A stretch of 32,192 bases of DNA from contig JAEYZV010000208.1 in the NCBI GenBank assembly GCA_023427865.1, positions 1 to 32,192 of the forward strand, written 5' to 3'. Below the pieces are notes generated by a model. The model saw only the letters and a list, made by a program, of their open reading frames with translations, had not been told where the DNA came from and searched no databases. This document shows, piece by piece, positions 100 to 13,664 of this stretch. Position 1 is the first letter of the stretch. Each line of letters opens with the position of its first letter. Source of the stretch: Acidobacteriota bacterium. GTDB taxonomy: Bacteria > Acidobacteriota > Vicinamibacteria > Vicinamibacterales > Vicinamibacteraceae. The translations under genes and the position numbers were made by a program.

Positions 100-3000
100 C
101 TACGAACTGCAAGGGCCGCCGGGCGGCGACGAATCGTACGGCGCCCGGCCCGGCAGCAACCGCGCACGCACGCGCTCGGGCAGCCGTGGGAAGTCACCGA
201 GGACCACCGCCATCTGCGTGGCGTCTAGGCCGTACAGGGAGGCCGCCGTCGCATGCAGGTCAGCGGCGGCCGCCTCATCGCCCGGACAGCGCATCAGACG
301 CAGCGTGAGCCTCACGACGCGCCTTCGCCGCAGATCGCCCGCGTCGACGCGAGGCACGGGCAGGGTGGCCATCAGCTTCGTGGTCACGTGCGCGCCAAGG
401 TAACGGCGCACGAACCAGTCGGCGACCACGCTGTTCAGCATGCCGCACAGATACAGCTGCGTCGCGAGTCCGGTGCGCGTGCGCAGGCAGAACAGCGTGT
501 GGGTCGACACGCACGCTGGCGGCAGCAGTGCGGCGATCAACGAGCGTGTGTTGGTCGGCGAGGAGACGTCGCGGTACGCAAGGCGCCAGCGCCGCCACGA
601 TCCCTCAGAGAGCAGGGACGCGGCGTCGGCCTCGTCGATCCACGGGCCGTCGTCATCCGGGCGGACGCTGAACGGCTGCACGTGCTTGCCATCCACGACG
701 ACGATCGGGATCGCGCCGGGCGCACGACGCAGCCGCCCGCGGTCGTCCGTGGCGTTCAGCTCTCGGCCGAACCGCAGATCCCAACCGCCGGGCCCGAGTC
801 GCGGCCACGCGATGAGCCGCTCGAGCAGCGCGAGCTCTTCGCCATTGCGCAGGTGCGGCACGGCTTCCGTCTCGCCTCCTGCCTGTTGGAGCAGTCTTCG
901 CGCCAGCAACCGCGGCGGCGAGGCCGGCGTGTGCCGCCTCAGGCGCAGGTGCGGTGCGTCGTCCACGAGCAGGTGGTCCGTCGATGCGCCCGTGGCCCCG
1001 CTCAGCGCAACGATCCGCATCGAGCGATGGATGGGGAACAGCCCTTCGCGGTTGTCCACGACCGAGACCCGGTCCACCAAGACCTGATCGAACACGAGGC
1101 GACGCAGGCCGGCGGCGCCGTGATCCGCGAGTACGCTGCCCGGCAGCAGGCAGCCGATGCGGCCGCCGTGACGCGCCAGCTGCAGCAGCCGTTCCACGAA
1201 CAACTGGTAGCTGTTCACGTGCCCGCTCGAGGCGCGGTACAGCCCGCTCTCGCGCACGAAACGCTGGAGCGGTCGTATGTCGTCGCGCCGCGTGGCGCGA
1301 TCGTCGTCGCTGCCGAGATCGCCGCGCAGCATCTCCCACGGCGGGTTCGCCACGACCGCGTCGAAGCCGCCATGACCGCCATCGAACACATCCGGGAACT
1401 CGAGACCCCAGTGCAGGCAGGCCTGCGCACGCGCCAGTTCCACCCATCGTCGTCGACAGGCTTCGACGTGGCTGGTGGTGTTCGTGCCTGTCCGTATCGC
1501 CTCGTCCACGCTGCGCCACACCGGCGCCGGCTCACGCGCCGCGTCCATGGCTGCCCCGCACCACGCGTCGGCACGCGTGCGCCAGGTGGCGAGCACGATG
1601 TCGTCGCGCAGGGACGCATGTTGCCGTGACTTCTCGCGCACATCGCCAGCCGTCTCGGTCGGTCGTGCCGCGAGCGCGGCGAGCAGCGGGCCCACACGCG
1701 CCGCCTCGTGGTGCCACTGCTGGAGATCGAACAACGGGAGTTGACCAACCGTTGGCCGCCGCCCGCCACGCTCGCGGACCGGAGCGCGAGCCAGCAGCGC
1801 AGCAGGCGAGACGCCGATCAGGCTGTTCCCGCAGCGCAGGTGCGCATCCAGCCACGTGAGCGGACGGTCCGGCGCGAGCGAGAGCAGCCACATCGAGAGC
1901 CGCGCCACCTGCACAGCACGCGGGTCGACATCCACGCCGAAGAGACACTGCTCGGCGATGCGCCGCGGCAGGGCGTCGCGCTCCCGCCGCGGCACGTCGA
2001 GCGGCCCCCCACGCCCCTCCCGCACCCAGGCGGCTTCCACGGCACCCACGAGGTACCGCAGCGCGCTGGCGAGCAGCGCGCCACTGCCCATGGCCGGATC
2101 GAGTACGCGCAACGACAGGATCCGCTCCGCCGAGGCGTCGCGCACGAGCGGCTCGAGGACCCGGTGCACGATCAGGTCGGCGAGTGCGGTCGGCGTGTAG
2201 TACGCCCCCGTTCCCTTCCGCAGCAGGCTTGCGCCAGCCGACGATGCCGACATCAGGTGCTCGTAGATCGACCCGAGGTGCTCCACACCGAGTTCGGCCA
2301 TGTCGATCGGTTCGCCGGCACCCGTGCCGCGGCCGGTCAGGCAAGCCAGCAGGCCCGCCACGGCGGCGTCAGGCAGGCGGGCTCCGCCTCGCGTGGCGAG
2401 CGCCGCGTCGAACAGCGGACCGTTCAGGGCGTTGACGCGCAGATTGCCGAGTCGCCCGCCCTGCCGACCGAGGCGACCCACCGCAACGAGGCTCTCGTGC
2501 AGCCCCACGGACGGCCCGCCGGGGCGCCGCTCCTCCTGCGAAAGCCCCGTGACGGAGTAGCTGCGTCGGTACGCCTCGTGCCACGTCGGGACCAGCTGCC
2601 GCGACTCGGCGAACAGGAGGAACAGCCACTGGAAGACGAGGGCGACGTGCGCGTTGCGATCTCCAGGCGCGCGGTTCTGCAGCGTGGTGAGCACCTCGGC
2701 GACGCCCTCGCGCAGCGCAGCGGCGGCCACCGCCGTCGATGATGCACTCGACGAGACGAGCCGCGTGAGCCAGGACGCGCGGCCGTGGCCGGCGCGTGCA
2801 GGGGGCGCCTGCCCGAGCAGCCACAGCACCTGCCAGACGCGCGCATCCATCGACGCGGCGGTCAGGTCGAGCGCCAGGTGTTCACGCGCATACGGCCGCG
2901 TAGCGTCGTACCACCGCCACGAGACGCCATTGCACACGCTCACCCATGACGCGCCGCGTTCGGCGCCCGCGCGCGTACACGCTCGTTGCAGGCCGTCCTG

Positions 3001-3333
3001 CGTGGTTCCCCACGGAAGCGCCATGAGAACCACCGCCGCTGCGCCGAGCTGCGCAGACGCCACGCGCAGCGGGATGCCCGCCAACCGCGCCACTTCCGGG
3101 GCGCCGGGAACCCAGCCGAGCGCCTCTGCGCACGGGCGAACGAGGTGCGACCACACCGCGGTGGCACCGGATGCCGGCCCGAGCACCTCGCCCGCGGAGT
3201 GCCAGACGCGAACGCATCGGTGCATCGCGTCCGTAGCAGCCGTCTCGTGGAAGTCCTGCAGGAGCAGGGTCGAGAGCTGACGCTCCAGCACGCGCGCAGC
3301 GATGCGTCCACCGGATATCCACGGCGCGCTCAC
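100..3333 (-). CDS. Type IIG/Eco57I-like (DrmMI-like) N6-adenine DNA methyltransferase with TRD; N-terminal nuclease-like domain looks degenerate
   Basis: Motifs RKGTGAYYTP, VLDPAMGSGALL (motif I), LFGVDVDPRAVQVARLSMWL and GFDAVVANPPW (motif IV). TRD-like WRLAYRDVSSPTNTRSLIAALLP. Start overlaps the helicase stop. Confidence 0.85.
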   Translation of the reverse strand: MSAPWISGGRIAARVLERQLSTLLLQDFHETAATDAMHRCVRVWHSAGEVLGPASGATAVWSHLVRPCAEALGWVPGAPEVARLAGIPLRVASAQLGAAAVVLMALPWGTTQDGLQRACTRAGAERGASWVSVCNGVSWRWYDATRPYAREHLALDLTAASMDARVWQVLWLLGQAPPARAGHGRASWLTRLVSSSASSTAVAAAALREGVAEVLTTLQNRAPGDRNAHVALVFQWLFLLFAESRQLVPTWHEAYRRSYSVTGLSQEERRPGGPSVGLHESLVAVGRLGRQGGRLGNLRVNALNGPLFDAALATRGGARLPDAAVAGLLACLTGRGTGAGEPIDMAELGVEHLGSIYEHLMSASSAGASLLRKGTGAYYTPTALADLIVHRVLEPLVRDASAERILSLRVLDPAMGSGALLASALRYLVGAVEAAWVREGRGGPLDVPRRERDALPRRIAEQCLFGVDVDPRAVQVARLSMWLLSLAPDRPLTWLDAHLRCGNSLIGVSPAALLARAPVRERGGRRPTVGQLPLFDLQQWHHEAARVGPLLAALAARPTETAGDVREKSRQHASLRDDIVLATWRTRADAWCGAAMDAAREPAPVWRSVDEAIRTGTNTTSHVEACRRRWVELARAQACLHWGLEFPDVFDGGHGGFDAVVANPPWEMLRGDLGSDDDRATRRDDIRPLQRFVRESGLYRASSGHVNSYQLFVERLLQLARHGGRIGCLLPGSVLADHGAAGLRRLVFDQVLVDRVSVVDNREGLFPIHRSMRIVALSGATGASTDHLLVDDAPHLRLRRHTPASPPRLLARRLLQQAGGETEAVPHLRNGEELALLERLIAWPRLGPGGWDLRFGRELNATDDRGRLRRAPGAIPIVVVDGKHVQPFSVRPDDDGPWIDEADAASLLSEGSWRRWRLAYRDVSSPTNTRSLIAALLPPACVSTHTLFCLRTRTGLATQLYLCGMLNSVVADWFVRRYLGAHVTTKLMATLPVPRVDAGDLRRRRVVRLTLRLMRCPGDEAAAADLHATAASLYGLDATQMAVVLGDFPRLPERVRARLLPGRAPYDSSPPGGPCSS

Positions 3334-5600
3334 GGGACGTTCCCCGGCGGCGCGTCAGCGGCCAGCCAATCGGCCGCTGCCGTGAATCCGCGTCGGGTGA
3401 TGAGCGCGTCCGTGCGGACGTGCGTCCAGCTCGTCATGCGACGCGCTTCCAGGACGGAAGGCTGCTCTTCCACGCGGAAGAGATCGCGGTCCTGCGAACG
3501 CTCGCGACTGGCGGCGACCGACGCGGCGCGGGCCCACGTGTGCATGCGGTGTGCCAGGCGTGTGGCGCGCGCCACCGGAGCGGAGAACAACCGGCAAAGC
3601 GACTCTGCGGAATCGACCGGGCCGATCTCTCGCACGGCGAGCGTGGCGTGAAGACGAGACGTTGACAGCGGCGCGTCGGAGGTGATCGCGATCGTTCCTG
3701 CCCACACCCCTCGCGCGCCCGGGGGCAGCTGCCAACGCTCGGACAGTCGCCGCCAGCGGCCAGGCGCGACTACGCATCGCGCGACCACGATGCCGGGCGC
3801 TCTCGCTGCGGCACGCCGGGTCATGGGCGGTGGCGTGACGTCTCGCGCGGCCAGGATGCGTGACGCCAGCGCCGACCTGCGACAGGTGCCTCTCGTGTGG
3901 CCAGGCCACCCGGCATCGTCCTGCGCACGCCGGGCGATGCGTGCGAGCGCGTCGCGGTCCTCGACCGTGTCGCTCGCCATCACCATCGCGTGAACGCGGC
4001 GTGGCTGTCCGTAGCGGTCGACACGCCCGATCCGCTGCTCGAGGACGCGGGCCGAGGGGGGCACCTCGGCGTGCACGACGAGGCGGCACCGCGCATGAAG
4101 GTTCAGGCCTTCGGCAGACGCGTCGGTCGTGACGAGGACGTCGGCGTCTCCCTGCGTGAACGCCGCGATCGCATCGGCGCGCAAGGCATCCGGCTGGCTG
4201 CCGTGCACGACGACCACCCGTCGCCCGTGCAGCGCGGCGCGCAGCGCGCGCAGGGTGTCCACGTACGCGGTGAAGACGACGGCCGGTTCGTTCACACGGC
4301 GGAGGAGTCGGGCCACGGCCTCGATCTTGCGTCCGGCTGCAGCAAGACGCTGAGCATGCGCGAGCAGCGCCGCGAGCTCGGCGCGCTCGGACCGCTCGTC
4401 CTCCCAGGCCGGCATCCGCATCATTTCCGCATCGTCATCGTCCTGATCGCAGGCGACGTCGAAGAGACCGGGACCGCGATCGGATCGTGTGCTTCCCGCC
4501 GTGCCGAGGACCTCCAGGCGCCGTTCGAGCGAGCGAACGACCGCCGCCGGACACGAGGCCGCGCGGCGTCGCAGCACCAGGGCCGGCAGCAATCCCGCGG
4601 GGCCGATCTCGTGCCTGGCGCGATGCGCGAATCGATCGAGCCTGGCGCAAAGGGCGGCATGCGCCAGGTCGAGGCGGACCTGCAGCACGTGCGTGCGGCG
4701 CGGCATCCGCTCCAGCCACGCGGCTGGCCGGCGAAGCACTGCCATCGGGTGTTCACCGGCACGCTGGCCGATCGCGCGCAACGAGGTGACGCCCTGGAGA
4801 CCACCCGCGGTCGGTGTGGCGGTGAGGAGCAGCAGGCGCATGCTTGCCATCGCCACGCGCCGCACGGCTGCCAGGCGGGCGGTCCCCGGCGCAGCCAGGT
4901 GCGCCTCGTCGACGACGAGCAGGGTCCATGGCGTGCGCGCCAGCAGCGAGACGACGTCCGGTTGGCGAAGCATGTCCATCGACACGAGCCAGCAGCCGCC
5001 GGCGCGTGACGCGTCCAGCTCGCGCCACGGCCGTGAGGCTTCGCGACGCAACGCCGTCGCGTCGAGCACGGCGGCGTCGATCCGCGCTTTCGCGAGCAGC
5101 TCGTGGCGCCACTGCACGAGCAGGCCAGCGGGGACGACCACTAGCGTCGACGCCGTGACGTCACGGGCATGCACCTCGTGCAGGAGCACGGCGGCCTGTA
5201 CCGTCTTGCCCATGCCCACCTCGTCGGCGATCAGCAGCCGTCGATGGTGACCGGACAGCACGAGCATCGACGGGACCAACTGCCACGCCACGGCGGTGAT
5301 GGGCAGGCGCCCGGCACGAGACGGCCACCAGGCCGGTGTGCACTCGCGTGCCCACGCGACGACGTGCCGAGCCCAGGCACGCCGGGAGACCGCCTGCGTG
5401 CGTGCCGGCAGCGGCTGGACGTGATCCGGAGGCGAGGCGACGAGGCGCGGTGTGTCGCTGTCGCGCAGCAGGTGCCACGTCGTGACCTCGGCGTTGCTGC
5501 GCACGTCGAGCACGTCCCACACCCTGGCGCGACAGCGCACGCGTGTGTGCAACATCTGCCACTCCCTTGCTGACGCACGTGGCAGCGAGTGCCACGTCAC
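3330..5600 (-). CDS. SNF2-family helicase/translocase (RapA/DrmD-like)
   Basis: LLIADEVGMGKT (Walker A), VVDEAH (Walker B), LTAT (III), TDASAEGLNL (V), EQRIGRVDRYGQ (VI). Confidence 0.85.
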   Translation of the reverse strand: MTWHSLPRASAREWQMLHTRVRCRARVWDVLDVRSNAEVTTWHLLRDSDTPRLVASPPDHVQPLPARTQAVSRRAWARHVVAWARECTPAWWPSRAGRLPITAVAWQLVPSMLVLSGHHRRLLIADEVGMGKTVQAAVLLHEVHARDVTASTLVVVPAGLLVQWRHELLAKARIDAAVLDATALRREASRPWRELDASRAGGCWLVSMDMLRQPDVVSLLARTPWTLLVVDEAHLAAPGTARLAAVRRVAMASMRLLLLTATPTAGGLQGVTSLRAIGQRAGEHPMAVLRRPAAWLERMPRRTHVLQVRLDLAHAALCARLDRFAHRARHEIGPAGLLPALVLRRRAASCPAAVVRSLERRLEVLGTAGSTRSDRGPGLFDVACDQDDDDAEMMRMPAWEDERSERAELAALLAHAQRLAAAGRKIEAVARLLRRVNEPAVVFTAYVDTLRALRAALHGRRVVVVHGSQPDALRADAIAAFTQGDADVLVTTDASAEGLNLHARCRLVVHAEVPPSARVLEQRIGRVDRYGQPRRVHAMVMASDTVEDRDALARIARRAQDDAGWPGHTRGTCRRSALASRILAARDVTPPPMTRRAAARAPGIVVARCVVAPGRWRRLSERWQLPPGARGVWAGTIAITSDAPLSTSRLHATLAVREIGPVDSAESLCRLFSAPVARATRLAHRMHTWARAASVAASRERSQDRDLFRVEEQPSVLEARRMTSWTHVRTDALITRRGFTAAADWLAADAPPGNVP

Positions 5601-5663
5601 GGCTCGCGATCGAAGAAATTCCCGGGAATGTCGCGCGATCCACGTCGCGACACCATGGGGAAC

Positions 5664-5679
5664 AGCAAGAGGGATGCCG
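5664..5679 (-). promoter_or_regulatory. putative sigma54 (-24/-12) promoter for the helicase-MTase pair
   Basis: Minus strand CGGCAT-CCCTC-TTGCT against consensus TGGCAC-N5-TTGCW. GG-N10-GC spacing is exact and the site is intergenic. Confidence 0.55.
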
Positions 5680-5688
5680 ACCGGCGCG

Positions 5689-5946
5689 TCAGGGGCGCAG
5701 CGTCACGAGCGTCGCGCCGAGATGGCTGCGCGGGTCATCGCCGAACGACAGGACGAGGGGGTGCGTGCGCAACACCTGCTGCACGCGTGCGCGTTGCACG
5801 CCGATGCCGCGACCGTGCACGAGACGCACCTCGCGGTACCCGCGCGCGTGTGCTTCCTCGAGGTATGCGTCGACGACATCGGGGATGTCGCGCGGCGCGA
5901 ACGGGTGCAGGTCGAACTCGGGTCCGATCGGGACGACGTGGGTCAT
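5689..5946 (-). CDS. stand-alone Smr/MutS2 C-terminal domain protein
   Basis: DLHPF...VDAYLEEA...VRLVHGRGIG...GATLVTL matches the Smr pattern (DLH, HGxG, GAT). Confidence 0.85.
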   Translation of the reverse strand: MTHVVPIGPEFDLHPFAPRDIPDVVDAYLEEAHARGYREVRLVHGRGIGVQRARVQQVLRTHPLVLSFGDDPRSHLGATLVTLRP

Positions 5947-6885: not shown

Positions 6886-6925
6886 AAGGCCCCGCAGGAC
6901 ACCGTCCCGCGGGGCCTTTCCTTTT
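6886..6925 (+). terminator. intrinsic terminator between convergent HU and histidine kinase
   Basis: AAGGCCCCGC...GCGGGGCCTT stem followed by TCCTTTT. Confidence 0.75.
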
Positions 6926-8646
6926 CAGCTGGTCGTGATCCGCGTCAGCCGCGGGAACGTCAGCGTGAAGCGGCTGCCCTCGCCGACCGTGCTCTCCACG
7001 TCGATGGAGCCGCCGAGCTGCTCGACGATCTTGCGCGAGATGGCGAGCCCGAGCCCCAGCCCGCGACGCTTGGTCGTCACGAAGTCCTCGAAGATCGCCT
7101 GCATGCGATCGGCGGGGATGCCGCAGCCCGTGTCGCACACGCGGACGTGTACCTGCGAGGCGCTGCCGCCGACCTCGATCCACACCCGTCCGCCAGGCGG
7201 CGTGGCCTGCAGCGCGTTGAGCACCAGGTTGCGCAGCACGCGTCCGAGCGCGAACAGGTCGCCCTCGATGTACAGCGGCTGGGGCGGTGCCGTCCCGGAG
7301 TCCACCGTCACTCCGGCCACCGAACCCTGCGCCTGCATGCGCTCGACGACGTCGAGCATCAGCTTGCCGGCGTCGATCGGGAACTTCTCGAGCGGGATGG
7401 GACGCGCGAGGTTGCGGAGGTCCTCGAACGTCCGCTGGATGGTCGAGAACTCCCTCTTCACCAGGCGCGCGAAGGTCGCGCGGTACTCGGGGTCATCGTG
7501 CATCTGCAGCACGAGCTTGCAGTTGTTGTTGATGTTCTGGATGGGATGCGACAGGTCGTGCACGAGGCCCGCCGCGATGCGTCCGAACATCGCCTGACGC
7601 TCCTGGCGGATCGCCGCCTGCTGCAGCTCGCCGAGCTTGTCGGCCGTGGCGTTGAACGCGTCGCCGAGCATCCTGAACTCGTCGTCGCGCGTGATGTGTA
7701 CGCGTCGGTCGAGGCGCCCTTCCCCGATCGCCTGGATTGCCGACAGCAGGTCCTCTATCGGCTTCAGCAGGGATCGACCGAAGGCGATGCCGATGCCGAT
7801 GTTTGCCAGCAGCGCCAGCGTCGCGAACAGCAGCAGCTGACGCTCGAGTCGACGCGCCGGCGCGAACGCGTCCTCCACCGGCTGCTCGATGATCAGCCGC
7901 CACCGGTCGGGCGTCACCGGCGCGCTCGACACCCCCAGCACCGCCTCGCCGTTCTCGTTCACGTACACGTCGTCCGACGGTGTCACGCTGTGCGCCAGCG
8001 GATGGGCGTCGGCAAGGTGCTGCCGTTGCGCGATCCGTCTCTTCCCGCCGCCGCGACCGTCCGCGATGATGCGGCCGGCCTCGTCGACGAGATACGCGCG
8101 GCCGTTCGTGCCCACCCGGACGCCATCGACGAGATGCCACAGCTGCTCGAGGCGCAACTCCGCGACCAGGAACGTCGCGAGCCGCTCGCCCAGCGGCACC
8201 CTCATCCGCGCGCGCGGCAGCTGGTCCTCGTCGAGGTCGACAGGCAGGAGGATCGGCTGCGCCGGCGAGGAGCACGGCGCGGGTAGTGGCGGCGGCATGG
8301 CGCCGAGATCGCTCGTGGCGACGGGTGTGCAGTTGGCGTCGAACAGCGTGATCGACTTGATCTCCTGCATCAGGTGCAGGTGATTGCGGAGCACCTGGTT
8401 CTGCTGCGCGCGAGACAATCCGACGGCCTCCAGGTCTGCGCCGGCCGATGTCACGAGCCTGTAGCTCGCGTCGACGTACAGCTCGATGGCGCTTGCGGCC
8501 CTGGCGGCAATGGCCCGGTGGTTCTCGACCACGGAGTCGCGAGTCGAACGGCTCAGGGTGCGGCCCGCGACGAGGCCGAAGACGAGGAGGGGCGCGAGGG
8601 CTGCGGTGGTGACCAGGAGCGCCATGCGCCGCGTGATCGGGATCAT
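6925..8646 (-). CDS. sensor histidine kinase (TM, Cache-like periplasmic domain, TM, HAMP, HisKA, HATPase; NtrB/NtrY-like)
   Basis: H-box LVHDLSHPI, N-box LRNLVLNALQA, DTGCGI, FVTTK, GLGLGL, and two TM segments. ATG 8646 overlaps the upstream TGA (ATGA) and has a GGAGAGG RBS. Confidence 0.92.
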   Translation of the reverse strand: MIPITRRMALLVTTAALAPLLVFGLVAGRTLSRSTRDSVVENHRAIAARAASAIELYVDASYRLVTSAGADLEAVGLSRAQQNQVLRNHLHLMQEIKSITLFDANCTPVATSDLGAMPPPLPAPCSSPAQPILLPVDLDEDQLPRARMRVPLGERLATFLVAELRLEQLWHLVDGVRVGTNGRAYLVDEAGRIIADGRGGGKRRIAQRQHLADAHPLAHSVTPSDDVYVNENGEAVLGVSSAPVTPDRWRLIIEQPVEDAFAPARRLERQLLLFATLALLANIGIGIAFGRSLLKPIEDLLSAIQAIGEGRLDRRVHITRDDEFRMLGDAFNATADKLGELQQAAIRQERQAMFGRIAAGLVHDLSHPIQNINNNCKLVLQMHDDPEYRATFARLVKREFSTIQRTFEDLRNLARPIPLEKFPIDAGKLMLDVVERMQAQGSVAGVTVDSGTAPPQPLYIEGDLFALGRVLRNLVLNALQATPPGGRVWIEVGGSASQVHVRVCDTGCGIPADRMQAIFEDFVTTKRRGLGLGLAISRKIVEQLGGSIDVESTVGEGSRFTLTFPRLTRITTS

Positions 8647-10112
8647 CGATCCTCTCCGACCACCTTCCACCGCGGCAGCGACCCGAGCACGTCGGACTCC
8701 GCGTCGTCGGGCACCTGCACGCGCTTGCCTACCGCACGGCTCGTGCGCTGCCAGTACAGGTGAACGGCCGGCGGATCGTCCAGGAGCACGTGATGCAGGT
8801 CGGCCACCGCTGCGACGAGATCGTCGTCGCCGGTCGCGACGCGAATGCGCTCGGCGGCGACCGCGGCCGAGCGGTACCCGAGGTCGATCATGCGCGGACG
8901 ATCGTGCGCGCCGAAGTACAGGTACGGCACGCCAAGGCCGTACCCGCTGACGATCGGCGACAGGAAGGTTTCGAAGTCGCCCCTCGCCAGGCGCGCCGGG
9001 AGGTCCCGGAGTTGCACGGGCGCCAACTCGAGGGCGATGCCAGCGTCCGCGTAGGATCGCTGCAATCGTCGAGCCACACGAATCATCGTCGGGTCGTCGA
9101 GCACGAGGCAGGTGACGCGGAACCGCGGGCGCATGGCTCCGTTGGGCGTGCGATGCACCGGCAGCCCTTCGGCGTCGAGCAGCGCGCCGGCGCGGCCACG
9201 ATCGACGCGAAGCCACTCGGCGTCGGCCGTGTGCGGCTGTGACCAGTGCTGCGGCCAGATGACGTCGGCAGCCGGCTCACCACCGCCAGCTTCCTGCACG
9301 AGGGCGGCACGGTCGACGAGCGCATTCATGGCGAGGCGTACGCGTCGCCGCGCGAGGATCGGATGCCGATGGTTCAGCCCGAGCGTGACCACGTAGGGTT
9401 TCACGTGAGGGTAGATCCGAGCTCCGGCCGCCGCGAGCAACTCTCGTGACTCGTTGGGCACCTCGTAGAGCACGTCCACCTCCTCGCGAAGGAGCGCGGC
9501 GACGGCAGCACGAGGGGTGTCGTAGCGTCGCAGCGCCACCGTCCGGATGTCGGGCGCAGGTGCCGCAGGCGCGTCGGTTCCTGCCGCTTCGAGGGACCGC
9601 ACGTCCGCGCCCGGATTCGGCGCCCGATACGGACCGGCAGGGAGCGCGCCGACGATCGAGAGGCTCTCGAGCAACAGGCTGGTGGACTCGCGCAGCGTGA
9701 GTCGCACCTCATGGGGCCCGGCGAGTTCCACCGCGGTCACCGGCCACAACCCGGGGCCGCTCTCGGCCGCCGCGACGGCCTCGCGCAGCACCGATACGAC
9801 GTCGGCCGCCGTCACCTCGCCGCCGTCCTGTAGACGCACGCCCTCGCGCACGTGGAGGATCCACGTCCGGCCATCCGGCGAGACGTCCCAGCGATCGACG
9901 AGGTCGGGCCGCGGGTGGCCGGCCTGGTCCATGCGGAGCAGGCGCGTGCGGGTCAGGCTGTAAACGAGGGGCGTCAGCGGCGCATCGGCACTCGGGATGC
10001 CGATGGCGATACGGGAGCCGCGAGTCGAGACCGGCGCCGGCTCGGGAGCCCGACGGCAGGCGGCCGGATACGCGAGCAGCGCGCCGGCGAGGCAGACGCC
10101 CACCCAGCGCAC
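8643..10112 (-). CDS. family 5 (OppA/DppA-like) extracellular solute-binding protein, possible lipoprotein; start uncertain (10112-10223)
   Basis: PDLVDRWDVSPDGRTWILHVREGVRLQDG...VTAADV is the SBP-5 N-terminal signature; LGLN..HP.L...RVRLAM; hydrophobic signal ending AAC. Confidence 0.8.
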   Translation of the reverse strand: MRWVGVCLAGALLAYPAACRRAPEPAPVSTRGSRIAIGIPSADAPLTPLVYSLTRTRLLRMDQAGHPRPDLVDRWDVSPDGRTWILHVREGVRLQDGGEVTAADVVSVLREAVAAAESGPGLWPVTAVELAGPHEVRLTLRESTSLLLESLSIVGALPAGPYRAPNPGADVRSLEAAGTDAPAAPAPDIRTVALRRYDTPRAAVAALLREEVDVLYEVPNESRELLAAAGARIYPHVKPYVVTLGLNHRHPILARRRVRLAMNALVDRAALVQEAGGGEPAADVIWPQHWSQPHTADAEWLRVDRGRAGALLDAEGLPVHRTPNGAMRPRFRVTCLVLDDPTMIRVARRLQRSYADAGIALELAPVQLRDLPARLARGDFETFLSPIVSGYGLGVPYLYFGAHDRPRMIDLGYRSAAVAAERIRVATGDDDLVAAVADLHHVLLDDPPAVHLYWQRTSRAVGKRVQVPDDAESDVLGSLPRWKVVGEDR

Positions 10113-10268
10113 CGCGGGGTACGACGCCAGTCGCTTGGCGGGAGGGCAGGCAGCGGGGACGGTCACGCAGCGTTCGGCGGGCGCGCCTGGTGCACGCATG
10201 CCCGCCGAGGCTGCTTGTATCACGAGTCGCGGACCGGCGCGGGAGCCGGGCGCGACATTCGCGGTGAC

Positions 10269-10376
10269 CTACTTGCCTTCCGGCCGGACCTCCGGCTGCT
10301 CGTACGGGTAGTCGATGAGCAGCGGGCAGAAGGGGCGGTCCTTGGATGCGCCCCGCTTCACGATGCGAATGGTCAT
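10269..10376 (-). CDS. putative RiPP precursor peptide, 35 aa: MTIRIVKRGASKDRPFCPLLIDYPYEQPEVRPEGK
   Basis: Not in the ORF track. AAGGAGA RBS 4 nt before the ATG, GC3-rich codons, 46 nt downstream of the rSAM/SPASM stop and on the same strand. Confidence 0.8.
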   Translation of the reverse strand: MTIRIVKRGASKDRPFCPLLIDYPYEQPEVRPEGK

Positions 10377-10422
10377 GGGATCTCCTTGACGATTGCGGGC
10401 CGCGGCGACATGCCGCGACGCG

Positions 10423-11865
10423 TCATGCGGGGACACCTGCTGCCGCCGCCGCGATCTCGTCGAGCGCGGCGAGCATGCTCGGGCGATGACAGCTCGGCTT
10501 GCCGAGGTCGCCCTGCTCGTTGTGTGCGGCGGCCGAGCACCCTCCGCCGCAGACCGGCACGAGCGCGCAATCGCCGCACGCCCGCCAGGGCGCGTGCGCG
10601 TCGAACCGGGCCCGCGTCGCCTCGTGCGTCGCGTTCATCGCGGGCAGCACGTGCCCGATCCGGAGAGCCGGTTCTCCCGTGAACCCCGGGCAGGGATACA
10701 GCGAGCCCTCGGGCCCGATGGTGTACGAGTGCCTGCGGTGCAGCTCGCAGGGACCCATGTGCAGTCCGTCCACCGTGTCGAACCCGCGTGCCCGGGTCTC
10801 CGCCCGGAGCCACGACATGCGCTCGTCGACGACCTGGCAGGTGTCACACGGCGACGATCCCCCGCCGTTGCCGGCGGCCGTCATGCACGTCCCCCCGAGC
10901 GGTACGTCCGCCTCACCCACGTGCGTCAGTGGGATCAGCCGACGGCCGTCCGGGGCCACCTGCAGCGGCGACCGACCGGGCGATCCTGTATTCGGCCCGC
11001 TAATGATGGGCTTGAACGCGACCTTCGCGATCCGGCCCGCAAATGGCTGCTGCCGCAGGAAATCGAGCAATTCGGGGAAGCTGGCGGCGCTCTCGATGTC
11101 GAAGTTGCCGCCGATGCTGAGGCGCACCTTCGGCGCCACCTTCGTCATGTTCGCGACGATGCGGTCGAAGGTGCCCTGGCCGCCGCGCAGCGGACGGAGC
11201 CGGTCGTGGGTGGCGCGATCGCCGTCGAGGGTGATCTTCACGCCGGCCAGTCCGTACGGCAGGAGGCGGTCGACGACGGCTTCCGTGAGGAGCAGGCCGT
11301 TGGTGATGATGTTGATGCGCATCTCGACGCCACGGCGCGTGCACGCCTCCCACATCCGCTCGGCCAGCGCATAGACGACCGGCAGGTTCAGGAGCGGCTC
11401 GCCGCCGAAGAACGTGAGCGTGAACCGGGGGGAGCCGAGGGCGTCCAGGCGCGATTGCATCCAGTCGGCAACGCGCGCTGCCGTCTCGAGCGACATCTTC
11501 GCGGCCGTGGCGTTGTAGCCCGCGTGGTCGCCCTGGATGCAGTAGTCGCAGGCGAAGTTGCACTGCAGGGTCGTGAGCAGCGTCACCCGCAGCTGGCTTG
11601 CGTCCTCACGCAGGTCACGGAAGAACGCCTCGAGATCCCGATCCTCGGCCTCGCGGCTCTCCACGAGGAAGCCGAGCTCGGCGAGTTGGCCGATGGCCGC
11701 CCGCGCCGTCGCATCAGCCTTTGTGACCTCGCCCCTGTCGACCTGGCCGATCAGTTCGACGACATCGCTCGAGACGACGATCTGGGCGTCGGTCAGCGAG
11801 TTGAACAGGAAGGTCTCGGACGTCCCCGGGACCGGGGTAGCGACGATGAACCTCGATGCGCGCAT
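10423..11865 (-). CDS. radical SAM/SPASM peptide maturase with N-terminal RRE/PqqD-like domain
   Basis: CNFACDYC (CX3CX2C), FFGGEPLLN, ITNG, ITLDG; SPASM CX13GX4C...CX2CX5CX3CX15C; N-terminal FLFNSLT...LAELGFLV. Confidence 0.92.
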   Translation of the reverse strand: MRASRFIVATPVPGTSETFLFNSLTDAQIVVSSDVVELIGQVDRGEVTKADATARAAIGQLAELGFLVESREAEDRDLEAFFRDLREDASQLRVTLLTTLQCNFACDYCIQGDHAGYNATAAKMSLETAARVADWMQSRLDALGSPRFTLTFFGGEPLLNLPVVYALAERMWEACTRRGVEMRINIITNGLLLTEAVVDRLLPYGLAGVKITLDGDRATHDRLRPLRGGQGTFDRIVANMTKVAPKVRLSIGGNFDIESAASFPELLDFLRQQPFAGRIAKVAFKPIISGPNTGSPGRSPLQVAPDGRRLIPLTHVGEADVPLGGTCMTAAGNGGGSSPCDTCQVVDERMSWLRAETRARGFDTVDGLHMGPCELHRRHSYTIGPEGSLYPCPGFTGEPALRIGHVLPAMNATHEATRARFDAHAPWRACGDCALVPVCGGGCSAAAHNEQGDLGKPSCHRPSMLAALDEIAAAAAGVPA

Positions 11866-11879
11866 GGCGGCCGCGGTAG

Positions 11880-11895
11880 TGCCAGACGGGTGCCA
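11880..11895 (-). promoter_or_regulatory. putative sigma54 (-24/-12) promoter of the rSAM operon
   Basis: Minus strand TGGCAC-CCGTC-TGGCA, one mismatch to TGGCAC-N5-TTGCW, 14 nt before the rSAM ATG and next to a GAFTGA activator gene. Confidence 0.7.
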
Positions 11896-11984
11896 TCCGG
11901 GACGCGATGGCGCGCGAAATCGGTAAGCGTCTCGTTATGAGGAAGTTACGGTAAGGCCAGCGAGAGCACGGAGCCCGCAGAACA

Positions 11985-12032
11985 TCGCAGGAACTGCGCT
12001 TCCATCGGGACTTGTGTGTCGCAGAATCTGCC
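11985..12032. promoter_or_regulatory. candidate upstream activator sites (twin GCAG-N3-CTGC palindromes)
   Basis: CGCAG-GAA-CTGCG (11986-11998) and GCAG-AAT-CTGC (12021-12031); centres 34 bp apart, about 100-130 bp upstream of the -24 box. Confidence 0.45.
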
Positions 12033-12057
12033 CACATGACGGCAGCGCGACACAAGA

Positions 12058-12100
12058 GAAGGACGAAGGAGGAAGGACGGAGGAGGAAGGACGGAGGAGG
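12058..12100. repeat. purine-rich heptamer repeat (GAAGGAC/GGAGGAG, 6 units)
   Basis: Directly visible just downstream of the response regulator stop. Confidence 0.8.
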
Positions 12101-12107
12101 CCCGCCA

Positions 12108-13496
12108 TCACGAATCGCGCAACCGTCGCGTGACCTCGTTCAGGCCCAGGCGGGCCATACGGTGCTTCAGGGTGCTGAGGGGGAGGCGCAGCTGGCGGGC
12201 CGTCCCGGCGACGTTCCAGTCCTCCTTCTCCAGTGCCTTGAGCAGGTAGCTGCGCTCGAAGGCGGCCACGGCCTGATCGAGGAGGCTGTCGGCGGGGTCG
12301 GCCTCGCGCGCGTCGAGTGCGGCGAGCTGCACTTCGAGCGGCAGGTCGGCCTCGGTGATCTCCGTCTTGTCGCAGACGGCGACCATGCGCTCGGCGAGGT
12401 TCTGCAGTTCGCGGATGTTGCCGGGCCACTTGTACCGGTGGAGCACCGTCAGGGCCGCCGGCTCGATGCCGCGGACGGCCTTGCGGAAGCGGAGCGCGTA
12501 GCGGCCGATGAACACCTCGAGGAGCTGCGCGAGGTCCTCCATGCGGTCGCGAAGCGGCGGCAGCCGCACCGGGATGACGTTGATCCGGTAGAACAGGTCC
12601 TCGCGGAACCGGCCACTCCGCACCGCCTGCGTGAGGTCGGCGTTGGTGGCGACCACGAGACGGAAGTCGACGCGGATCGGGTGGCGCCCGCCGACCCGCT
12701 CGATCTCGTTCTCCTGGATGGCCCGCAGCAGCTTGGCCTGCAGGTCGAGCCGCAGGTCGCCGATCTCGTCGAGGAACAGCGTGCCGGCGTTGGCGAGCTC
12801 GAACTTGCCGAGCTGCTGGCGCACGGCACCCGTGAACGCACCGCGCTCGTGCCCGAACAGCGTGCTCTCCACGAGATCGCCGGGGATCGCGGCGAGGTTG
12901 ACGGCGATGAACGGGCCCTTGCGCCGATCGGACTCGGCATGGATGCGGCGGGCCAGCATCTCCTTGCCGGTGCCGCTCTCGCCGGTGATCAGCACCGTCG
13001 TGTCCAGGGGCGCCACCTTCTGGACGAGGGCGACCACGGCCCGCATCGGCGCGCTCGTGCCAGTGACGAACTCCTCGTCCTGCGCCTCGACCTGCGCCGT
13101 CAGCGACTCGACACGGTTCTTGAGGTCCTGCCGCTCGCTTGCGTTGCGCACGAGGGCACGCAGCGCGTCGTAGTCGAACTCCTTGGTGATGTAGTGGTAG
13201 GCGCCGAGCTTCATCGCCTGCACTGCGGTCTCGACGTCGGTGATCGCCGAGATCATGATCACCTCGATTTCCCCCCGCAGCTCACGTACCTGCTTGAGCA
13301 TCTCGAGCCCGCCGATGCCGGGCAGCCGCACGTCGAGCAGCATCAGGTCCACGCGCGCCTGCCGCAGGCGCGACAGCCCGTCCTCGGCCGAGGAGGCGGT
13401 CATCACCCTGTAGTCGCGCTTCAGGATGGCCGTCAGCGTGTCGCGCATCCCCTCATCGTCGTCGACGATGAGGATGGTCTTCTGGGGGGAGGGCAT
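12108..13496 (-). CDS. sigma54-dependent response regulator (NtrC family: REC, AAA+, HTH)
   Basis: ILIVDDD...LLD receiver; GESGTGKE, GAFTGA, LFLDEIG, REDLFYRI, WPGNIRELQN; Fis-type HTH. Alternative start at 13511. Confidence 0.95.
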   Translation of the reverse strand: MPSPQKTILIVDDDEGMRDTLTAILKRDYRVMTASSAEDGLSRLRQARVDLMLLDVRLPGIGGLEMLKQVRELRGEIEVIMISAITDVETAVQAMKLGAYHYITKEFDYDALRALVRNASERQDLKNRVESLTAQVEAQDEEFVTGTSAPMRAVVALVQKVAPLDTTVLITGESGTGKEMLARRIHAESDRRKGPFIAVNLAAIPGDLVESTLFGHERGAFTGAVRQQLGKFELANAGTLFLDEIGDLRLDLQAKLLRAIQENEIERVGGRHPIRVDFRLVVATNADLTQAVRSGRFREDLFYRINVIPVRLPPLRDRMEDLAQLLEVFIGRYALRFRKAVRGIEPAALTVLHRYKWPGNIRELQNLAERMVAVCDKTEITEADLPLEVQLAALDAREADPADSLLDQAVAAFERSYLLKALEKEDWNVAGTARQLRLPLSTLKHRMARLGLNEVTRRLRDS

Positions 13497-13664
13497 CGGT
13501 GGCGCCTGCATCTTACCGAAGAGCCCGCGCCGGTCGCGTGACGATCCATAATTGGGAGTTTTCCCGGATCGGGGTCGGCGTTATCGACCACCGACCGTCG
13601 GAGCACGGATTTCCCGGGTGGACGTGCCGCCAAGGCACGCGCCCTCACTGGCAAGGAGCAGGGG

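Follow-up and report, generated by a model that had tools for sequence, protein, structure and literature searches.

A conserved single-cysteine peptide family encoded beside radical SAM/SPASM enzymes in Vicinamibacterales: candidate thioether precursors in a possibly self-sensing operon

A 32,192-nucleotide stretch of an Acidobacteriota genome (GenBank assembly GCA_023427865.1, contig JAEYZV010000208.1; the whole stretch is termed the window) carries a 35-codon open reading frame (ORF) directly 3' of a gene for a radical S-adenosylmethionine (rSAM) enzyme with a SPASM domain. Comparison of related sequences indicated that this ORF is a real, conserved small-peptide gene and not a chance frame, and that the peptide family occurs throughout the Vicinamibacterales (Acidobacteriota). 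The peptide is very probably a genuine substrate of the neighboring rSAM enzyme. As judged from conservation, the most likely product would be a one-ring, ranthipeptide-like, ribosomally made and post-translationally modified peptide (RiPP) with a thioether from Cys to Asp or Glu. The full account, namely a thioether RiPP precursor with a self-sensing operon as its more tentative last part, is the one we favor, with a modest degree of confidence. The peptide gene and its ribosome-binding site were located as follows:

10269..10376, minus strand: precursor peptide gene, 35 codons and TAG (Cys17 codon 10328..10326; Asp22 codon 10313..10311)
10381..10387, minus strand: Shine-Dalgarno sequence AAGGAGA of the peptide gene, 4 nt 5' of the ATG

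The ORF begins with the ATG at 10376..10374, ends with the TAG at 10271..10269 and translates as MTIRIVKRGASKDRPFCPLLIDYPYEQPEVRPEGK, in which residue 17 is the sole Cys and residue 22 is Asp. The Shine-Dalgarno sequence (10387..10381) is separated from the ATG by the spacer TCCC. An earlier note, made from the letters of the window only, had described AAGGAGA-N4-ATG followed by a 35-residue, single-Cys ORF; every one of these elements was present, on the minus strand, which that note had not given. The window DNA is ~70% G+C and ORFs of ~35 codons are common in it, so the ORF by itself is no proof of a gene.

The case for a gene came from relatives. With five upstream codons added to the peptide so that the query was of sufficient length, a search of a 5.8-billion-protein set returned 19 relatives of 31–57 residues (E 3.9e-14 to 1.3e-5), and in their alignment M1-I5, R8, F16-C17-P18 and I21-Y25 were invariant. 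Related loci were fetched with the rSAM protein rather than the peptide, with one genome per species, and the best 80 of 350 stretches were kept. All 80 were labelled as Acidobacteriota or Vicinamibacterales metagenome-assembled genomes, except one labelled 'uncultured bacterium' (L005). Four loci stop less than 110 nt past the rSAM gene (L010, L020, L060, and L076), leaving 76 testable loci. An intact family member was found on the same strand and at most 800 nt 3' of the rSAM gene in 74 of the 76; 71 were recognized by regular expression and three on visual inspection, namely in L023, whose copy begins with GTG, L033, where the tail is altered, and L059, where the core is doubled. The remaining two loci contained disrupted copies (L038 and L067). 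A scan for small ORFs 3' of homologous rSAM genes was the check that the earlier note had proposed for its peptide, and the scan recovered the family at nearly every such gene. The window peptide's own motif in strict form, C-x4-D-[YFW]-P-[YFW], occurred in only 4 of the 80 loci; it was too narrow and was replaced by a full listing of small ORFs.

The small-ORF listing from the 80 loci defined the family pattern: M-[KT]-I-x-[IV]-[IV]-K-[KR]-[GAS], then 6–12 variable residues, then C-[PAGQST]-[WFYL]-x-[VILMY]-[DE], and a short, proline-rich, acidic tail whose last residue is usually Lys or Arg. Across 81 distinct sequences the Cys was invariant and the residue at +5 was always acidic (Asp in most, Glu in some); residues between and after these two positions varied. 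The features that the earlier note had expected to be conserved were borne out in this way, i.e., an N-terminal strand (M-[KT]-I-x-[IV]-[IV]-K-[KR]-G), an invariant Cys, and an acidic residue five positions on. Among 11 close relatives, codon positions 1, 2, and 3 carried 260, 206, and 503 differences, respectively. The invariant Cys was encoded by both TGC and TGT and the acidic residue by all of GAC, GAT, GAG, and GAA. A Shine-Dalgarno-like 5-mer stood 4–18 nt 5' of 74 of 89 family genes, compared with 5.5% of random 15-nt windows.

The number of peptide gene copies per locus ranged from one to four in tandem. Precursors with a single leader and two repeated cores were found in L059, P0143, P0147, P0150, P0234, and P0286; in these doubled precursors one N-terminal M-K-I-Q-I-V-K segment is followed by two near-identical Cys-containing units. 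The L059 precursor is a 48-residue ORF beginning 41 nt past the rSAM stop at 7434. A single N-terminal segment followed by repeated Cys units is typical of modified-peptide precursors.

When 1.84 billion representatives were searched with a family profile, 408 clusters at 50% identity matched at E <= 0.001; 679 clusters at 90% identity matched at E <= 0.01. The sole name given by the source databases among the best 120 of the 679 clusters was 'hypothetical protein', as it was for some homologues of the first search. Pfam, NCBIfam, and ESM Atlas gave no yield for the window peptide, although the exact sequence is present in ESM Atlas, and no Pfam or NCBIfam model reached its cut-off for the window peptide or for sets of 35 and 63 relatives. 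No named family of Pfam or NCBIfam therefore claims the peptide, which agrees with the suggestion of the earlier note that it may represent a new RiPP family.

The neighboring enzyme is a 480-residue protein:

10423..11865, minus strand: radical SAM/SPASM peptide maturase, 480 aa (Pfam PF04055 and PF13353; NCBIfam; SPASM domain at residues 373–457)

Its CxxxCxxC motif is C102/C106/C109, and ten more cysteines are invariant. The SPASM model TIGR04085 scored 49.3 bits against a cut-off of 27. The best named family was the geopeptide maturase TIGR04280 (E 8e-74), and every one of the top NCBIfam matches was a peptide maturase; the thioether formers PapB, QhpD, and SCIFF maturase were among them. 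Scores and cut-offs were:

TIGR04280, geopeptide maturase: 249.1 bits, cut-off 400
CefB: 171.7 bits, cut-off 600
TIGR04463: 165 bits, cut-off 525
PapB (NF047865): 130.8 bits, cut-off 340
QhpD: 114.1 bits, cut-off 453
SCIFF maturase (TIGR03974): 107.6 bits, cut-off 425

The closest solved structure was that of the thioether former CteB (5wgg; E 1.7e-20 over residues 96–246). Pfam detected no PqqD/RiPP recognition element domain in the enzyme at E <= 0.01. Named homologues of the enzyme point to a host close to Luteitalea (Vicinamibacterales), and the enzyme of Luteitalea pratensis (P0038) is 77% identical.

The enzyme (alignment of 24 sequences) and the peptide (alignment of 63 sequences) were folded together with SAM and three 4Fe-4S clusters. 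The complex reached interaction prediction scores from aligned errors (ipSAE) of 0.88, 0.90, and 0.91, compared with 0.01 for the best of three controls. In calibration, 58 of 80 solved complexes attained the mark applied, as did 2 of 110 mismatched pairs; these figures hold here only roughly, since the fold was made with alignments of our own and with small molecules. The runs agreed in at least 83% of contacts, and the predicted local distance difference test score of the partner was at least 71. In the model, enzyme residues 17–64, in the N-terminal domain, contact the peptide. The surest contacts fall in three places. Peptide residues 3–6 lie against enzyme residues 28–32; Phe16, Cys17, and Pro18 contact C373, E374, and C392, a stretch that includes conserved SPASM cysteines. 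Tyr23 contacts T151 and I187, which by our reading lie at the SAM-binding barrel because the invariant motifs GGEP (154–157) and TNG (188–190) are nearby. The modelled geometry is as expected for a link from Cys17 to residue 22.

The Cys and the carboxylate are best read as thioether donor and acceptor, because both are invariant and held at fixed spacing within a variable core. A Cys-Asp thioether is thus suggested by conservation and by the kinship of the enzyme, and in the window peptide the predicted ring would be C17-P-L-L-I-D22. Published chemistry of this kind is consistent with such a ring. PapB is described in PMC9413430 as forming Cys-Asp and Cys-Glu thioethers and as accepting Cys-Xn-Asp with n = 0–6; in published work on related thioether chemistry the joined carbon adjoins the side-chain carboxylate. 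The substrate Cys or selenocysteine binds an auxiliary-cluster iron (PMC10177961), and QhpD makes C-beta-S and C-gamma-S bonds according to passages of PMC10114670.

The earlier note had also proposed a single macrocycle, from Cys17 to Asp22 or involving Phe or Tyr. The first form gains from the family, in which the Cys and the +5 acidic residue are invariant, and the Phe/Tyr form is not supported, F16 and Y-P-Y being conserved in the clade of the window only. The residue at +2 after the Cys is Trp, Phe, or Tyr in most members and Leu in the window peptide and its closest relatives; because of that Leu, an aromatic residue at +2 is not essential in general.

A second family of small ORFs, of 25–30 residues, was also observed, with a Lys-rich start followed by G-T-L-R-P-W-L-V-D-V-x-V-[ED]-H-L-R. 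It lies between the rSAM gene and the Cys peptide gene in 35 of the 80 loci (e.g., L015:7468-7551, L018:7494-7574, and L029:7459-7542) and is absent from the window. A Shine-Dalgarno-like site preceded 19 of 21 of these ORFs, and the family had no NCBIfam match.

The proposed course of events begins, by comparison among loci, with translation of the peptide gene from its own ribosome-binding site within an operon under a sigma-54-type promoter. In the complex model, the M-T-I-R-I-V strand would pair with a strand of the N-terminal recognition domain of the enzyme, and this pairing would hold Cys17 at an auxiliary iron-sulfur cluster, with Asp22/Tyr23 lying above the SAM-binding barrel. The outcome would then be a single thioether ring of six residues (C-P-L-L-I-D), by analogy with what PapB and QhpD do with Cys and Asp/Glu.

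The surrounding genes were annotated by choosing reading frames according to codon-position G+C, followed by Pfam and NCBIfam scans. The order on the minus strand was: sigma-54 regulator, a 242-nt gap, rSAM enzyme, peptide, solute-binding protein, and histidine kinase. Besides the enzyme and peptide genes, the features of the operon were:

12108..13511, minus strand: NtrC-type response regulator with receiver, sigma-54 interaction AAA+, and Fis-type helix-turn-helix domains (Pfam, NCBIfam)
12015..12054, no strand assigned: inverted repeat TGTGTCGC-N24-GCGACACA, 5' of the promoter-like element
11881..11895, minus strand: sigma-54-type promoter-like element TGGCACccgtcTGGC(A), starting ~30 nt 5' of the rSAM ATG
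8643..10223, minus strand: family-5 (peptide/nickel type) solute-binding protein (Pfam PF00496)
6925..8646, minus strand: membrane histidine kinase with dCache, HAMP, HisKA, and HATPase domains (Pfam)

The GTG at 10112 is the probable true start of the binding protein, and a hydrophobic, signal-like stretch comes after it. The ATG of the kinase at 8646 overlaps the binding-protein stop by 4 nt (ATGA), and the same 4-nt overlap occurred in 47 of 65 loci. In two loci, L034 and L046, the binding protein and kinase form one open frame (1169 and 1115 codons, respectively), possibly a natural fusion or an indel error in the metagenome-assembled genome. Among the loci testable for each gene, 70 of 71 have the regulator 5' on the same strand, 64 of 65 have the binding protein 3', and all 61 have the kinase; the domains of these neighbors were confirmed in L029 and L025. 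Among the window ORFs scanned, none next to the binding protein is a transporter gene.

A GG-N10-GC element stood at most 250 nt 5' of the rSAM gene in 72 of 77 loci, compared with an expectation of 0.018 for 250 nt, as estimated elsewhere in the same loci; the pattern was tuned after the sequences had been inspected and its form is that of the canonical -24/-12 promoter. In most clades the element is GGAAT/C-N5-TTGC, ~90–120 nt 5' of the rSAM gene, with GGAG before the ATG. In the clade of the window it takes the form TGGCAC-N5-TGGCA with a variable spacer at -31 (L001, L003, L005, L006, L007, and L008). The ~30 nt between element and rSAM ATG imply a nearly leaderless mRNA in this clade. No evident Shine-Dalgarno sequence was seen before the rSAM ATG in the window (11866-11895, minus strand) or in the same six loci. 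A scan of 9950-12150 for sigma-70 promoters and terminators returned none, and Rfam had no match in the window. The inverted repeat at 12015..12054 is a candidate activator binding site. Three tandem 14-nt purine-rich units (GAAGGACGGAGGAGG, plus strand) were observed at 12058-12100, just past the regulator stop.

Genes for lipoamide dehydrogenase (Lpd) and E2 lie upstream on the opposite strand, and genes for HU and QueF lie downstream. Farther along, at 100-5702 on the minus strand, the window encodes a 1084-residue Eco57I/MmeI-type N6 DNA methylase and an SNF2-family helicase, the latter with the DISARM helicase DrmD as its best NCBIfam match (182 bits against a cut-off of 610). The two are a possible anti-phage defence pair.

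A self-sensing loop is suggested by two features of the operon, namely an orphan binding protein with a coupled kinase behind the peptide gene and a promoter of the type served by the adjacent activator. Under this tentative proposal the trimmed product would exit the cytoplasm and be bound by the orphan solute-binding protein, which would act through the translationally coupled kinase and the sigma-54 regulator to turn on the same operon. That the peptide is a self-sensed signal is graded as a minority prospect. A more specific version, rather doubtful in our view, is a new type of pheromone circuit at a fixed site in the Vicinamibacterales in which the ring-bearing product is read in the periplasm by the binding protein and the peptide core, binding protein, and kinase sensor co-diversify into 'pherotypes'. 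The Cys-less R-P-W-L-V-D-V peptides could be a second signal or an antagonist.

Divergence was measured in 20 nearest-neighbor pairs, with the following mean distances:

Regulator: 0.108
Kinase, cytoplasmic half: 0.169
rSAM enzyme: 0.225
Kinase, sensor half: 0.359
Binding protein: 0.475

The outward-facing parts, i.e., the binding protein and the sensor half of the kinase, diverged fastest. In two pairs, L030/L055 and L021/L022, the binding proteins differ at 42% and 59% of sites, and the regulator and rSAM proteins of the same pairs differ by only 6.5% and 10%, a sign that the binding-protein gene alone has diverged very fast or been replaced. A partial Mantel test of peptide core against binding protein, given the regulator, was positive over 40 loci (r 0.52, p 0.0005), a value inflated by relatedness. 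Co-variation of core and receptor was not counted as support, the Mantel result being positive and the independent pairs not decisive. Comparison of the binding protein with the solved proteins AapF, AgaA, OppA, NikA, and PrgZ gave weak matches (E 6e-8 or worse).

Several results weigh against the account of a thioether precursor in a self-sensing operon. The enzyme falls under the cut-off of every named NCBIfam maturase family, and five homologues behave alike. The ring is predicted from two conserved residues. The favorable complex fold may owe something to the solved CteB-peptide complex, and SAM and the clusters were unscored, so that the model gives no distances to them. The second small ORF shares P-W-x-V-D with the main family and has Arg in place of Cys; if it is also a substrate, the action of the enzyme is not wholly dependent on Cys. 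The whole neighborhood, from E2/Lpd to HU/QueF, is syntenic across the order, and adjacency therefore partly reflects descent and not function. Over the entire window the count of the sigma-54 pattern was not above chance (37 against 31.4 expected), so the case for the promoter is one of position and conservation. No peptidase or exporter was found in the operon among the window ORFs scanned. In 20 independent pairs the residual correlation of core with binding protein was rho 0.36 (p 0.11); that of core with the sensor half of the kinase was 0.39 (p 0.09) and did not exceed that with its cytoplasmic half, 0.49 (p 0.03).

Three other explanations were weighed. The peptide might be a substrate of the enzyme for different chemistry: a sactionine, a C-C link at +2, epimerisation, or an AgrD-like thiolactone after cleavage behind +4. 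The Cys-less second peptides, which retain R-P-W-L-V-D-V, speak for it, as does the C-x4-[DE]-x-P layout, which resembles AgrD and is matched, below cut-off, by AgrD models in a few relatives (TIGR04223 in 2 of 63 and PF05931 in 1 of 63). Moreover, rSAM/SPASM enzymes within one clade can differ in chemistry. A radical SAM enzyme linking Trp to Arg is described in PMC11851443. The Leu at +2 of the window peptide and its closest relatives shows that an aromatic link would not be general, the Cys and the acidic residue are the only invariants, no AgrB-like domain occurred among the 26 window ORFs scanned, and in the model Cys17 lies by the SPASM cysteines, with residue 23 placed near the SAM barrel; taken together, we regard different chemistry as improbable. 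Far less probable still is that the peptide is unmodified and the ORF serves the binding-protein and kinase genes as a regulatory upstream ORF or leader peptide, or else encodes a small structural protein. Its position directly 5' of the binding-protein gene (at a gap of ~45–155 nt, depending on the true start of that gene) would suit such a role, and no family model or structure is known for the peptide. It is, however, the amino-acid sequence and not the RNA that is conserved, with third-position changes dominant; the gene occurs in tandem copies and with doubled cores and accompanies the rSAM gene in 74 of 76 loci; folded with the enzyme, the peptide scores well above the controls; and the region has neither an Rfam match nor a terminator-like site.

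The remaining alternative accepts the same precursor and enzyme and differs in what the product does. The sensor would read an outside cue (a foreign peptide, metal, or opine-like compound), and the modified peptide would have a different job, for example to act as an antimicrobial, to bind metal, or to serve as an effector in the periplasm or cytoplasm. Family-5 binding proteins take many ligands, the nearest solved ones being nickel, opine, and oligopeptide binders at weak E-values; the operon is without exporter or leader peptidase; and independent pairs gave no receptor-specific co-variation with the peptide core. On the other side, the sensor genes lie inside the operon that they would control, 3' of the peptide gene, in nearly all loci. 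The locus is fixed and vertically inherited across the order, unlike strain-variable antibiotic clusters, and the binding protein diverges far faster than its neighbors even in close relatives (0.417 against a reference of 0.065 in L030/L055). We consider an outside cue unlikely, though a serious contender, and retain the thioether precursor with a tentatively self-sensing operon as the favored account.

Vicinamibacteria are abundant soil bacteria with few cultured members. We know of no cell-cell signals in Vicinamibacteria, and to our knowledge, with no search aimed at the point, peptide quorum sensing has not been described in this diderm soil phylum. The locus is among the few order-wide conserved features that join a modified peptide to a dedicated sensor. 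If the peptide were a self-signal, it would offer a testable entry to communication among Acidobacteria, and radical-SAM chemistry would be newly joined to a three-component sigma-54 circuit; as a pheromone, its chemistry would be unlike that of Agr, Com, or RRNPP signals. Even if it is no signal, the locus provides a compact natural substrate/enzyme pair for one-ring thioethers that would be useful for PapB-type peptide stapling, and the family offers a single minimal Cys-X4-Asp/Glu motif across at least 408 clusters at 50% identity. A model for these ~30-residue peptide genes would help genome annotation.

A search of open-access text, consisting mostly of titles and the starts of abstracts with a few passages, found no paper on this system, and the matching passages of PMC8692599 concern other clusters. 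Among known systems the peptide would, by analogy, work most like a ranthipeptide of the PapB or QhpD kind. The enzyme nevertheless lies outside the PapB, SCIFF, QhpD, and geopeptide-maturase families, because it scored under their curated cut-offs.

The likeness to PapA/PapB (freyrasin) consists of an rSAM/SPASM maturase beside a short precursor in which a Cys is followed by Asp or Glu a few residues on. The differences are that the precursors here have 29–38 residues, that the enzyme reached 130.8 bits against the PapB cut-off of 340, that the host belongs to the Acidobacteriota, and that the operon adds a binding protein, a kinase, and a sigma-54 regulator. CteB (SCIFF/thermocellin) is the closest solved structure and is likewise a thioether-forming rSAM/SPASM enzyme; it reportedly has an N-terminal peptide-recognition domain. 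SCIFF precursors differ in having six Cys in ~45 residues, compared with one Cys in 35 for the window peptide, and the window enzyme scored 107.6 bits against a SCIFF maturase cut-off of 425.

The geopeptide maturase TIGR04280, classed as a 'hypothetical equivalog', was the best-scoring named family for the window enzyme and was also matched by five homologues (242.5–271.6 bits). All of these scores are below the cut-off of 400, and the best matched stretch spans only the first ~290 residues. No NCBIfam family matched the window peptide at E <= 10, and none named geopeptide matched the 35 and 63 relatives, the presence of such a model in the collection being unconfirmed; 'geopeptide' had no match in the open-access literature. 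QhpD is similar: it too belongs to the rSAM/SPASM enzymes and forms thioethers from Cys to Asp (C-beta) and from Cys to Glu (C-gamma), as stated in passages of PMC10114670. It differs in its substrate, QhpC being a multi-link enzyme subunit rather than a free 30-residue peptide, and in score (114.1 bits against 453).

The earlier note had likened the tripartite layout to that of AgrD, and this likeness held for the layout only. Like AgrD, the precursor has three parts, namely a short N-terminal segment, a Cys with four residues before an acidic one, and an acidic, proline-containing tail, and as in the Agr system its gene has a kinase and a regulator as neighbors, which could switch on the operon of the precursor itself. 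The sequence models did not follow: TIGR04223 (AgrD) matched 2 of the 63 relatives (best 17.2 bits, E 0.0042, cut-off 19), the Pfam AgrD model PF05931 matched one (E 0.079), and neither matched the window peptide. No AgrB domain was found by Pfam among the 26 window ORFs scanned. Unlike Agr, the system would work without AgrB and always includes an rSAM enzyme, and the proposed ring is a thioether to an acidic residue formed by radical chemistry, not a thiolactone. The receptor here would be a binding protein with a Cache-type kinase, and the regulator is sigma-54 dependent.

Systems that combine a binding protein, a histidine kinase, and a sigma-54 regulator are represented by AioX/AioS/AioR, and LuxP/LuxQ and TorT/TorS are also of note here. 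As in the AioXSR type, an orphan binding protein is encoded with and coupled to a kinase and the output runs via a sigma-54 activator. Systems of that type sense outside small molecules, whereas the operon described here itself encodes a predicted modified peptide, which is a potential ligand.

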